Below, in pieces: positions 6,987-11,269 of a stretch of DNA of 24,720 bases. The notes beneath the pieces were generated by a model. That model did not search any database and was not told the origin of the DNA. It was given only the letters and a program-made list of their open reading frames with translations. The stretch is taken from assembly GCA_005191425.1 (NCBI GenBank), contig SUPR01000049.1:1-24720 (forward strand), given 5' to 3'. The translations under genes and the position numbers were made by a program. The stretch comes from Candidatus Helarchaeota ASGARD archaeon Hel_GB_B (GTDB lineage: Archaea > Asgardarchaeota > Lokiarchaeia > Helarchaeales > HEL-GB-B). Position 1 is the first letter of the stretch. Every line of letters starts with the position of its first letter.

Positions 6987-7493
6987 TTGGTCCCAATGAC
7001 TAATGCAATATTTACATTGAGCGACAACCTAGAAAATGCCAATTCATACTATTGGTATAAAATTATTTATAATACTGGAGATTTACTCCAAATAAATGTC
7101 TCAAGTTCAGATAATAGGAATTATATCATAGGAGCAATAATATCTACAGCTGTACAACCTAGTAGTAATTTGGGTGGGACTTTAATATTAGTAGCCGACA
7201 TTTTAGATGCTACACATAATGTTTCCTTAAAATATAGAAACTCAAATTATTTTCAGCACAGGACAGAGCTTTATTTATTAATTGTTGCATTAAATAATTC
7301 AAATCCAGAAAATTTGAGTTATATAATAAATAGTACTCATCCATTATTACCATATAGCTACGAACAATTTTTTCAAGAAGTCCATCTTCCATTATTGTTA
7401 TTAATTGCAGCAATATTTATTGTAGTTGGAGCTATAGTATCGGTTTATTTTATTTTAAAATATAAAAAAAGCGGGAAACCAAAGTTAATTTAA
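6987..7493 (+). CDS. Hypothetical membrane-anchored surface protein (C-terminal TM plus basic tail)
   Basis: C-terminal LPLLLLIAAIFIVVGAIVSVYFIL followed by KYKK. An in-frame hydrophobic signal-like stretch lies upstream of the called start. Confidence 0.6.
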   Translation: MVPMTNAIFTLSDNLENANSYYWYKIIYNTGDLLQINVSSSDNRNYIIGAIISTAVQPSSNLGGTLILVADILDATHNVSLKYRNSNYFQHRTELYLLIVALNNSNPENLSYIINSTHPLLPYSYEQFFQEVHLPLLLLIAAIFIVVGAIVSVYFILKYKKSGKPKLI

Positions 7494-7560: not shown

Positions 7561-8382
7561 CTATTTTTCAGTATAAATAGGTTCTTCTAATTTAATATTT
7601 AACCCTTGAAAAATATCTGAACAATTATTTTCCCAATATTTTAAAAGTTTATCATAAAAAAGGTTATACATTTTATCATCACTTTTTTCCATACAAATGA
7701 ACTTTAGAGCAGAGATAAATTCGAGAAAATCTTTCTTATTTTTAATTAGATTATTTTTAATTCGCTTTACTTCGAAACTAGCCCCTTGTAAGAATTCGGA
7801 GCGATTAAATAAGTCGTATTTTTTAATCCATCTATCAAAGCCATAATATTTACCTTCTAATTCTCTAAATGATAAGTAATAATCAATTCTTTTTAGAATA
7901 TTATTATTAAAAATAAAATGGCGCTCATGAACATCGTAGAGATTTAAGAATTTGTGAAAAATAAAATGACGTCCGATATTATAGAGATGATATAAAATTT
8001 CGCCTTTTTTTAAAGTTTTACCTTCACAATAGGTAGTTAATACAAAAGGAATAGGTGATTTCCATCTCCAAAACCCCACATCATAATTTCCTACAATATA
8101 ATTATTTGGACATAAGTCTATATCAATTATTCGAGCTATATGAAGAGAAATTGCTTCAAAAAATACATTAATTGCCATACTTTTCTTTATATGAAATAAA
8201 GGGTGTCCATCAATATCAAAAACATCATATTGTTTAAAATAATTCCAATTAGATTTGAGATAAAAATCTTTATCAATTTTTATCCCTAAATAATTCATTA
8301 GATTTGGTATTTCTTCAGTACTTATATTTCTTATTGACCGCCAATGGAAAGGATGTGGTAAATGTTTAAATGTCATTCTCAC
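7561..8382 (-). CDS. Atypical kinase-like protein (HipA / PI3K-PI4K-like superfamily)
   Basis: Order and spacing of candidate motifs match the fold: beta3 Lys FHIKK, alphaC Glu FFEAISLHIA, hinge VLTTYCEG, catalytic loop YDVHERH (DxHxxN-like) and Mg-binding RIDYYLSF (IDxxxxF-like). Confidence 0.6.
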   Translation of the reverse strand: MRMTFKHLPHPFHWRSIRNISTEEIPNLMNYLGIKIDKDFYLKSNWNYFKQYDVFDIDGHPLFHIKKSMAINVFFEAISLHIARIIDIDLCPNNYIVGNYDVGFWRWKSPIPFVLTTYCEGKTLKKGEILYHLYNIGRHFIFHKFLNLYDVHERHFIFNNNILKRIDYYLSFRELEGKYYGFDRWIKKYDLFNRSEFLQGASFEVKRIKNNLIKNKKDFLEFISALKFICMEKSDDKMYNLFYDKLLKYWENNCSDIFQGLNIKLEEPIYTEK

Positions 8383-8458
8383 TTTTATTTATGAAATTAA
8401 TATTTATAATTATGATTAAATAAAGATTTAATTACTAAAAATTGGATTAAATGAATGA

Positions 8459-9340
8459 TTGATGAAATTTCAAGAATTAATTGCGAAATTTGAGAAATTT
8501 GATAATAAAGATTCAAATAAAATAAATGAATTAATAGAAAAGGTTAAGTTGCGGTTAGTCAAAGAACCAATACTAATAAAATTAAATAGTGGAAGTAATT
8601 CAATTATCGTGGGGGATTTACATGGTGATTTTAAGACATTACAATCGATTATAAAAGTTTTTATTGACGAAAATTTTGAGAAAATCATTTTTCTAGGTGA
8701 TTATATCGATCGAGGATTTGGAGATATGCAAATTAAAACAATTAACTTCCTACTATTTTTAAAAGATTTATTTCCTGAAAAAATATATTTATTGAGAGGA
8801 AATCATGAATGGCGTTATATTAATGCAGAATATGGCTTCAAAGATGCAGTTTTTCATCATTTACATCCATTTATATATTATAGATATAATGAAATTTTTG
8901 ATGAATTGCCTATTGCGATTTTTATTGCTGAACCAAAAATTTTAGCCGTGCATGCAGGAATTCCTGTATCTCTTAACAACAAAATATACTCATTAGATGA
9001 TATTTCAAAAATTTCAAAAAAGAATTGTTTTGAAAATAAACTGGCCCAACAAATATTATGGAACGACCCATCTGAAAAAATTGAAACAATAAAAAAGAAC
9101 TATAGAGGATTGGGTTATATTTTTGGTAGTCTTCCTTTTAATGAATTCCTAAACTACAATAATCTAGAATATTGCATCAGAAGCCACGAAATAATAAAAA
9201 GTGGTAATATTCAACATTTCAATGGTAAATTAATTACCATATTTAGCTCAAGGAGTTATATAAAAAATGTAAAACCACATATTTTATTAATAAATAAAAA
9301 CACAAAATTAGAATTTAGAGAAATTAATTCGAGAAAATAA
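8459..9340 (+). CDS. PPP-family Ser/Thr protein phosphatase (calcineurin-like metallophosphoesterase)
   Basis: Complete motif set GDLHG, GDYIDRG, LRGNHE, HAG, LWNDP, IRSHE, TIFS. ATG at 8462 is the likely start. Confidence 0.92.
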   Translation: MMKFQELIAKFEKFDNKDSNKINELIEKVKLRLVKEPILIKLNSGSNSIIVGDLHGDFKTLQSIIKVFIDENFEKIIFLGDYIDRGFGDMQIKTINFLLFLKDLFPEKIYLLRGNHEWRYINAEYGFKDAVFHHLHPFIYYRYNEIFDELPIAIFIAEPKILAVHAGIPVSLNNKIYSLDDISKISKKNCFENKLAQQILWNDPSEKIETIKKNYRGLGYIFGSLPFNEFLNYNNLEYCIRSHEIIKSGNIQHFNGKLITIFSSRSYIKNVKPHILLINKNTKLEFREINSRK

Positions 9341-9477: not shown

Positions 9478-10671
9478 ATGAGCTTTAAAATTAAAGGTAA
9501 AATAATAATCAATAAAGAAGTAGAAAAAATAATTAAGAGTAAATCCTCAGAAATTATATATAAAAAAAATATAAGGAAAATAGAAGAGGGATTAAATCCA
9601 GGGGATATGGTAGAAATATACAATGAATACAATGAATTATTAGGAATTGGTTTTTATGAATCTATGGAAAATATAGGTATACGGATAATGACATTTGGAG
9701 AGGATACATTTGATGAAGATTATATAATTAAGAAATTTAAAAATGCAAAAAAATTGCGTAATAAATTAGGTTTCACAGATAATTTTCGCTGGATTAATTC
9801 AACTGGAGATTCTTTTTCAGGGCTCATTGTTGATAAATTTAATGATTTAGTTGTAATAGAGAGTTTTAGTGTAGGAATTGATAAAATATTAAATAGAATA
9901 GCCGATATTATCATGAATATAGATAGAGATATTAAAGCAGTTTATGTCAGAAATGATGTGAGAAATAGAAAAAGATTCAATTTAAAAATTTGGAAGGGAT
10001 TTATCGGAAATCCAATTGAAATTAAAACTCAAACAATAATAAAAGAGAGCTCTGCAAAGTTTTATGTTGACATTGAAAAGGGAAATAAGACGGGGTTTTA
10101 TTTAGACCAAAAGCCAAATAGAATAGAATCTGAGAAATATGCAAAGAATTGTAAAAAAGTATTAGACTGCTTTTCCTATACAGGTGGCTTTGGTATTCAT
10201 GCAATTTTACAAGGTGCCAGTGTTACTTTTGTTGAACATGACCCCAACTCGGTCCAAATGCTGAAAAAAAATTTAGCATTAAATGATATCTCAAGTGGTT
10301 TTAAAATATATGAAACTGATTTTTGGCAATATATTAAAAAAGACGACAATAAATACGATATGATAATTTTAGACCCACCCAGTTTTATTAGTAATCGTAA
10401 TGAAATTAAAATTGGAGAACAAAAATATTATAAAATGAACTATTTAGCATTACCAAGGTTGAATGATGGCGGAATTTTAGTTACTTCATCATGTTCATAT
10501 TTTTTAGATATAAATAGACTCCAATCAATCATTTTAAAAGCAGCTGATAATTTAAACATTAAATTAATACGATTAGGGAGAGTGCGGGGAGCATCAGTAT
10601 GTCATTCTATTGCTCCCAAAGTCCCTGGAATTGAATATTTAAAATGCTATTTTTTTATAAAGGAAGGTTAA
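9478..10671 (+). CDS. PUA-domain class I SAM-dependent RNA m5C methyltransferase, RlmI-like
   Basis: N-terminal PUA-like region (PGDMVEI..GIGFY), GLIVDKF, KTGFYLDQ, LDCFSYTGGFG, ILDPPSF, and catalytic Cys in TSSCS. Confidence 0.88.
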   Translation: MSFKIKGKIIINKEVEKIIKSKSSEIIYKKNIRKIEEGLNPGDMVEIYNEYNELLGIGFYESMENIGIRIMTFGEDTFDEDYIIKKFKNAKKLRNKLGFTDNFRWINSTGDSFSGLIVDKFNDLVVIESFSVGIDKILNRIADIIMNIDRDIKAVYVRNDVRNRKRFNLKIWKGFIGNPIEIKTQTIIKESSAKFYVDIEKGNKTGFYLDQKPNRIESEKYAKNCKKVLDCFSYTGGFGIHAILQGASVTFVEHDPNSVQMLKKNLALNDISSGFKIYETDFWQYIKKDDNKYDMIILDPPSFISNRNEIKIGEQKYYKMNYLALPRLNDGGILVTSSCSYFLDINRLQSIILKAADNLNIKLIRLGRVRGASVCHSIAPKVPGIEYLKCYFFIKEG

Positions 10672-10696: not shown

Positions 10697-11269
10697 TTAT
10701 GTTGTAAATATTGAGAGCATCTTTTTAGTAATTCTGTAGGTATCTTTTTTCCTATAGCCACATGTCGGACAAAAATGTTCTTCCTTAATATAATATTGTC
10801 TATTTGCTAAATGTTGCCCAAATTGAATCCGAACTTCCATTTCTGCATTACATTTTGAACGTTTACATGGTCTATTATAAACAAATTCAGGAGTCGGATT
10901 GGATATTTTTATCAAATCAAATAGATCTCGCGATATATTAAAATCACCTGAAAAAACATCAGCTAATTTATGGGAAATTACATTTAATGACCGAAATAGT
11001 TCTCTTTTATCATAATTTTTTGAAATACATATTGCTAAAGATGCATCCGATGAAATCTTGGATTGTAGACAGACTGAATTCTCATCAATTTTGAGGTCTT
11101 TTCTATTACAAATGGCAGACAGCGCTAAAATATTTTCGTCAATTTCTGCTTTGTTTTTTGATGCGATAACAAGTCCTTGATGATCAGTAATTACGCTTCC
11201 TTTACAATTCACAATTTCGTTAATTTGTTCCATTATATTATTTAATTGTCTACTATCAACTAAATTCAT
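10697..11269 (-). CDS. Roadblock/LC7-like domain fused to a C-terminal C4 zinc ribbon
   Basis: N-terminal helix followed by GSVITDHQGLVIAS (Roadblock pattern). The C-terminal part has CKRSKC...CPTCG. Confidence 0.65.
   Translation of the reverse strand: MNLVDSRQLNNIMEQINEIVNCKGSVITDHQGLVIASKNKAEIDENILALSAICNRKDLKIDENSVCLQSKISSDASLAICISKNYDKRELFRSLNVISHKLADVFSGDFNISRDLFDLIKISNPTPEFVYNRPCKRSKCNAEMEVRIQFGQHLANRQYYIKEEHFCPTCGYRKKDTYRITKKMLSIFTT

Follow-up and report, generated by a model that had tools for sequence, protein, structure and literature searches.

Does a short divergent control region in the genome of an Asgard archaeon join a eukaryote-like phosphatase to the kinase that opposes it? 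The locus that raises this question lies in a stretch of 24,720 nucleotides from Candidatus Helarchaeota archaeon Hel_GB_B (positions 1 to 24,720 of contig SUPR01000049.1, GenBank assembly GCA_005191425.1; hereafter the window, meaning this whole stretch at its full length). The Asgard origin of the DNA had been correctly recognized in an earlier reading made from the letters alone, the sequence-only reading. In this study, we explored two genes that stand head to head in the window, one encoding a kinase-like protein and the other a phosphatase of the PPP family, together with their relatives in other Asgard genomes. Our findings favor, with rather more confidence than doubt, a model where the two would form a dedicated antagonistic phosphorylation pair of Lokiarchaeia-class Asgard archaea, served by a single short divergent control region. 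The elements concerned are as follows (aa, amino acids).

7561 to 8376, minus strand: orphan protein-kinase-like gene, 271 aa.

8377 to 8461, no strand: AT-rich divergent spacer of 85 bp, the only room for both promoters.

8462 to 9340, plus strand: gene for a Ser/Thr phosphatase of the PPP family (PP1/PP2A/PP2B/PP5-like), 292 aa; it represents a paralog type devoted to the kinase-like partner.

GC content in the window is low, at about 22-40%, and the listing of open reading frames gives 7561-8382 on the minus strand and 8459-9340 on the plus strand. Alignment with homologues sets the start of the kinase-like gene at the ATG at 8376 (minus strand; MTFKHLP...) and that of the phosphatase gene at the ATG at 8462 (plus strand; MKFQE...), and the spacer is therefore 85 bp long; an alternative start of the kinase-like gene, GTG at 8382, would add two residues. 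The separation of about 76-79 bp proposed earlier is recovered as 76 bp when counted from the upstream GTG and TTG, but grows to 85 bp between the ATGs that homologues support, while the head-to-head arrangement around a short divergent control region common to both genes is as had been described. Homologous spacers measure 53-114 bp, and no conserved sequence block was found by eye when seven of them were compared.

Judged by its sequence, the product of 8462-9340 is a true member of the PPP enzymes, and its active site is intact. It matches the Pfam family Metallophos (E 4.8e-26) and, among PDB sequences, calcineurin A (6.4e-37), PP1 isoforms (2.6e-34 to 1e-31), PP5 (about 3e-29), and PP2A-C (3.5e-28), in matches spanning residues about 20-270; identity to PP1 and calcineurin is 32-40% over about 245 residues. 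Full-length similarity to the PP1/PP2A/PP2B/PP5 type is accompanied by the motifs of both halves of the protein. In the N-terminal half, all 20 aligned sequences keep the metal- and phosphate-binding motifs GDLHGD, GDYIDRG, and GNHE without change; in the C-terminal half we find HAG (HGG in most relatives), LWNDP, YRGLG, RSHE, and ITIFSSRSY, the last keeping the Tyr of a SAPNY-like motif. The WxDP, RxHE, and TIFS signatures, from which a complete eukaryote-like PPP had been called, are thus all present along with the remaining motifs. Since the motif set is complete and all catalytic residues are invariant across the 20 aligned relatives, the evidence argues for a genuine PPP enzyme. The enzyme class is known biology and not new here: eukaryote-like PPPs of Asgard archaea have already been described (Kerk et al. 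2021, PMC8249667), and all six PPP motifs of these archaeal enzymes (PP1-arch), including the SAPNY Tyr, are common to the window protein. Unlike them, however, the paired PPP is a second, lineage-specific paralog that occurs beside a housekeeping PPP, and in the paired PPPs of Helarchaeales, GDYVDRG is followed by an insert of 2 residues and GNHE by a Trp, while SAPNYC is replaced by SSRSY.

The partner gene is far less readily placed. At the sequence level, the label "kinase-like" given to it in the sequence-only reading finds no counterpart: neither the single sequence nor profiles gave any match in Pfam, NCBIfam, PADLOC, or the PDB sequences, none of 18 family members is matched by PF00454, PF07804, PF20613, or PF09192 at E<=10, and a whole-genome search with PF20613 did not match the kinase-like locus at E<=1. 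A word-indexed search of 5.8 billion proteins yielded 12 homologues, all labelled Helarchaeota, and 20 members of the family emerged when 1.84 billion cluster representatives were searched exhaustively with a profile; a word-based profile search that used the broad alignment (A2) added no further relatives. All named members belong to Promethearchaeota or Helarchaeota. Among 400 Asgard genomes the family is present in 22, all of the window's own class; by genome family (f1, f4, and so on in our numbering), the gene occurs in 2/2 genomes of f1, including G000, the source genome of the window, and in 1/1 of f4, 2/14 of f5, 13/135 of f6, and 4/4 of f7. No family model covers these proteins, a targeted full-text literature search retrieved no paper on them, and neither the family nor its link with a PPP paralog appears to have been described. 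Two larger proteins contain repeated partial matches to the kinase-like profile, namely P0025 (2305 aa; 25 stretches matching profile positions 87-121) and P0031 (1512 aa; 6 stretches matching positions 4-60); each may be a repeat protein or a compositional artefact.

At the fold level, on the other hand, the label is upheld by structure comparison. From 11 sequences, AlphaFold2 produced a confident model (predicted local distance difference test score, pLDDT, 80; predicted template modelling score, pTM, 0.82), and in an exhaustive structural comparison the 50 best matches are all kinase-fold proteins, over residues 1-265: PI4KIIalpha (Z 10.9), CtkA (10.1), actin-fragmin kinase (9.9), MavQ (9.8), PI4KIIIbeta, PI3Ks, and PIKKs (8-9.4), CotH (8.5), HipT (8.4), and HipA (8.2). 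Foldseek retrieves PI3K at E 7e-5, and the structural and language-model neighbours in the ESM-Atlas comprise HipA_2, PI3_PI4_kinase, LepB_N, actin-fragmin kinase, and LanM-type domains. The 271-aa protein is accordingly modelled with the two-lobed kinase fold of the protein-kinase-like (PKL) superfamily, and is predicted to fall in its PI3K/PI4K, actin-fragmin-kinase, and CtkA/HipA_2 branch; since the top matches are tied within 1 Z, the fold gives the branch and no single family.

The conserved residues follow the same scheme. An alignment of 18 sequences, reaching down to 20-30% identity, shows K64, E74, G119, G135, H153, R163, G198, and W248 to be invariant, and D148, R152, and D165 nearly so. 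In the predicted secondary structure, K64 ends a strand and E74 lies in the next helix, D148-x3-R152-H153 comes after a long helix (126-144), and D165 comes after two short strands; the elements are found in the order beta3-Lys, alphaC-Glu, catalytic loop, DFG. Read from this order, K64 (within HIKKS) would be the beta3 Lys and E74 the alphaC Glu, whereas D148-V-H-E-R152-H153 would form the catalytic loop, headed by the catalytic Asp, and R-I-D165-Y-D167 the DFG equivalent, so that the conserved Lys, Glu, and two Asp of the PKL superfamily would all have a candidate by position. The spacing, +5 from D to H and +12 from H to D, resembles that of D166, N171, and D184 in PKA. The metal-binding Asn expected at +5 from the catalytic Asp is absent; an invariant His (H153) takes its place in 18/18 aligned members. 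The motifs also separate subfamilies, with DVxDRH...RIDFG in f6 and f7 and DVxERH...RIDYD in Helarchaeales.

The window copy itself departs from its subfamily within the putative DFG equivalent. Codon 167 (7876..7878, minus strand) is TAC, specifying Tyr (RIDYY), where the representative of its 90% cluster has GAC, specifying Asp; residue 167, which matches the DFG Gly of other subfamilies, is Asp in all Helarchaeales relatives. In public metagenomes from hydrothermal vent and marine sediment, the contigs of four runs all have C at 7878, and hence GAC and Asp. Because the contigs of all four runs agree, Tyr167 is private to the window assembly, and reflects either strain variation or a mistake in assembly. 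Window and metagenome contigs also differ at 8417, in the spacer (T versus C, all four runs), and at 8635, in the PPP gene (G versus A, three runs).

What, then, ties the two genes together? The synteny of the pair, which the sequence-only reading had put forward as a check, is conserved: head-to-head PPP and kinase-like genes are found in 19 intact loci (7 in Helarchaeales and 12 in f6), amid different flanks and down to about 30% identity for the kinase-like protein and about 40% for the PPP, with an additional fragment at a contig end in f5 and one decayed locus. Context look-ups revealed the divergent pair in five further Helarchaeota contigs, and tblastn over the survey loci located it in G126, a genome of the same genus as the source, in 12 f6 genomes, and in the contig-end fragment of G132 (f5). 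Relative to the window, the f6 pairs show about 29-36% identity in the kinase-like protein and about 38-43% in the PPP. The Helarchaeales pairs are flanked by a membrane protein and an SSF transporter, and those of f6 by a rubrerythrin and a VIT1 transporter; the neighbourhoods of f1 and f6 have only the kinase-like and PPP genes in common. On this comparison of gene neighbourhoods, the divergent arrangement is evidently not a matter of chance.

The phosphatase of the pair is, moreover, a distinct paralog. PPPs occur in 294/400 Asgard genomes, and in a tree of 53 PPP sequences the paired PPPs of f6 (Shimodaira-Hasegawa-like approximate likelihood ratio test, SH-aLRT, 100) and of Helarchaeales (99) form clades apart from a housekeeping PPP clade, which is also represented in both f1 genomes and, among the pair-bearing f6 genomes that entered the tree, in most; the second PPP of the source genome lies on contig C107 (289-1149). 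The kinase tree likewise resolves f1 and f6 clades (100 and 98), as does the PPP tree. Within f6, matches to the window PPP of 1e-49 to 1e-55 are limited to kinase-bearing genomes, the intact ones having a second, weaker PPP match as well and the other two, G175 and G276, keeping the paired PPP as a remnant only. The best PPP match in f6 genomes that lack the kinase is about 1e-43, and those sampled in the tree (G202 and G216) have their PPPs in the housekeeping clade. This co-occurrence of kinase-like gene and paired PPP holds even inside genera of mixed content (g15, g24, and g27). In G276 (C5:498411-499080, locus L028), the two genes have decayed side by side, the kinase-like frame being broken by 8 stops and the PPP reduced to a remnant of about 88 aa. 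The pair is an accessory function, repeatedly lost within f6. The two genes are thus neighbours, the PPP is a paralog of its own, and both are present, absent, or decayed together; all of this argues for a functional couple, and lends the writer-eraser module of the earlier reading good support of a comparative kind.

The make-up of the source genome is in line with such a couple. The Pkinase profile (PF00069) has only two weak matches in G000 (open frames of 213 and 299 aa), against two PPPs, so an unconventional kinase as counterpart of a PPP is plausible. In the antagonistic pair that we favor, the 271-aa protein would be an active phosphotransferase of protein-kinase-like fold, binding ATP via K64 and E74, with D148 as the catalytic acid/base and D165 and H153 holding the metal; the PPP would remove phosphate either from the substrate or substrates of the kinase, Ser/Thr in proteins being the likeliest, or from the kinase after autophosphorylation, and both genes would be co-regulated from the divergent spacer. 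A comparable logic is known from PrkC-PrpC and Stk1-Stp1, in which a Hanks-type kinase and a PP2C (PPM) phosphatase share one operon. The likeness resides in the adjacency of genes for a kinase and its cognate phosphatase, presumably co-regulated; the window pair differs in combining an orphan PI4K/HipA-like fold with a PPP, and in its divergent orientation.

Several observations weigh against the favored model. Where kinases have a metal-binding Asn, this family has His; no sequence profile ties it to any kinase family; and in the window copy, Tyr stands at position 167, an invariant Asp in the subfamily. The counts are also not independent, as they come from genomes related to one another. 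Seven loci (five in the four f7 genomes, one in f4, and one in a single f5 genome, G133) carry the kinase-like gene with no adjacent PPP, amid heterogeneous neighbours (PQQ propeller, histidine kinase, NTPase, DinB, and SDR), and PPPs of the same broad clade as the paired ones occur in kinase-less genomes of f2, f3, f19, f30, and f31. In G133 and G281, a PPP of that broad clade is found elsewhere in the genome; around solo PPP orthologues the neighbours are unrelated, and no alternative kinase stands beside them. A predicted complex of the PPP and the kinase-like protein, computed with alignments for both and without control runs, scored 0.00, which speaks neither for nor against binding.

How else could the locus be explained? 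The sequence-only reading had also entertained a toxin kinase resembling HipA or HipT that arrests growth, with the PPP as enzymatic antidote, in a toxin-antitoxin (TA) or defence-like pair. The presence of HipA, HipT, and HipA_2 among the fold and language-model neighbours would fit, as would the patchy, accessory range of the gene and the fact that both genes are lost or decayed together. Yet PADLOC has no match and the locus no TA architecture, mobile-element genes are missing, each family keeps a stable chromosomal synteny, and kinase-like genes stand alone at the seven loci of f7, f4, and f5. Nor does the pair resemble HipBA or HipBST, in which an operon includes a helix-turn-helix (HTH) antitoxin, HipB, joined by HipS in the three-gene form: no HTH gene is found among the neighbours. 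Compared with CtkA/HipA_2 (PF20613) and the HipA/HipT toxin kinases (PDB 3akj, 7ab3, and 5k98), the window gene lacks a PF20613 or PF07804 match, a HipB or HipS partner, and an operon, its partner being a divergent PPP. We thus find little to commend the toxin-antidote proposal, and consider it quite improbable. The structural neighbours PI4KII, MavQ, and LepB raise instead the prospect of a lipid or small-molecule kinase (acting, for example, on archaetidylinositol) that the PPP regulates rather than erasing the same mark, in a genome that makes inositol phosphate (G000 has two myo-inositol-1-phosphate synthase genes). However, PI4KII leads the protein kinases CtkA and actin-fragmin kinase by no more than 1 Z, a statistical tie; position 151, the D of "DRH", is not conserved (E in f1, W in f7, P in f4); and there is neither a PF00454 match nor an identified membrane-binding element. 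To our knowledge, PPP enzymes are protein phosphatases, which also counts against a lipid kinase, and we judge this alternative unlikely. A related proposal would keep the PPP as cognate eraser and make the family an Asgard relative of the eukaryotic PI4KII/actin-fragmin-kinase lineage, phosphorylating inositol lipids or cytoskeletal proteins; we grant such descent an outside chance. From the kinases of the PI3K/PI4K-like fold, among them PI4K type II alpha and actin-fragmin kinase (PDB 4hnd and 1cja), the window protein differs in several ways: its sequence shows no detectable likeness to theirs and is matched by neither PF00454 nor PF09192, it is only 271 aa long without accessory domains, it has His for the catalytic-loop Asn, and it belongs to a family restricted to one Asgard class.

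Catalysis itself may be questioned. Eukaryotic PPPs act via dedicated regulatory subunits, and a pseudokinase could be a subunit that regulates or targets the PPP, or else the substrate of the PPP, in keeping with the missing canonical Asn (H153) and with the Helarchaeales subfamily in which Asp replaces the DFG Gly. But the Lys, Glu, catalytic Asp, and DFG Asp are kept across 20-30% identity, which is unusual for a pseudokinase, His is able to ligate metal, and the kinase-like gene persists without an adjacent PPP in f7, f4, and f5; a pseudokinase thus strikes us as very doubtful. It is similarly hard to credit that the two genes are unrelated and their adjacency no more than inherited synteny, without functional link. 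The lack of linkage in f7, in f4, and in a single f5 genome would agree with this, as would the fact that all genomes are of one class, whereby conservation may partly reflect shared ancestry. Against it, the f1 and f6 neighbourhoods share nothing beyond these two genes, f6 genomes lacking the kinase also lack the paired PPP type, even in three genera of mixed content, and both genes have decayed in G276.

Does the dedicated pair extend to further genes? One candidate lies next to the kinase-like gene.

6987 to 7493, plus strand: convergent neighbour, 168 aa, with a C-terminal membrane helix and no family.

This protein, whose synteny is confined to Helarchaeales, is convergent on the kinase-like gene in six other loci of that group, at 37-51% identity, and was not found within 1.4 kb of the pair in the same-genus genome G126; at the equivalent position, the f6 loci carry rubrerythrin. 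Since the Helarchaeales membrane protein is replaced in f6, no third module member is supported, and the 168-aa protein is probably outside the core module. Downstream of the PPP gene, at 9478-10671 (plus strand), the window encodes a PUA and S-adenosylmethionine-dependent methyltransferase protein (RlmI/Trm-like), kept in some Helarchaeales loci (L001, L005, and G126) and not in others. Farther on, at 10697-11269 (minus strand), a 190-aa protein combines an N-terminus with a weak likeness to Roadblock/LAMTOR5 (PF16672, E 5e-4, below the cut-off) and a Cys-rich, zinc-ribbon-like C-terminal tail. Immediately past the kinase-like gene of one f6 genome, G164, comes a fragment of an MCM helicase (L013:117-1364) that contains an intein splicing domain and an HTH_3 segment.

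The kinases that oppose the eukaryote-like PPPs of Asgard archaea are largely unknown, and the pair described here provides a concrete candidate for writer and eraser. The kinase-like family adds a new sequence family to the PI3K/PI4K, actin-fragmin-kinase, and HipA branch of the kinase fold. If the two genes make up an ordinary regulatory pair, about two dozen "hypothetical proteins" would still gain a helpful annotation. Should the substrate be an inositol lipid or a cytoskeletal protein, the pair would bear on the origin of eukaryotic signalling; and if the family did belong to the PI4KII/actin-fragmin-kinase lineage, it would represent a prokaryotic forerunner of eukaryote-type phospho-signalling at the membrane or cytoskeleton.
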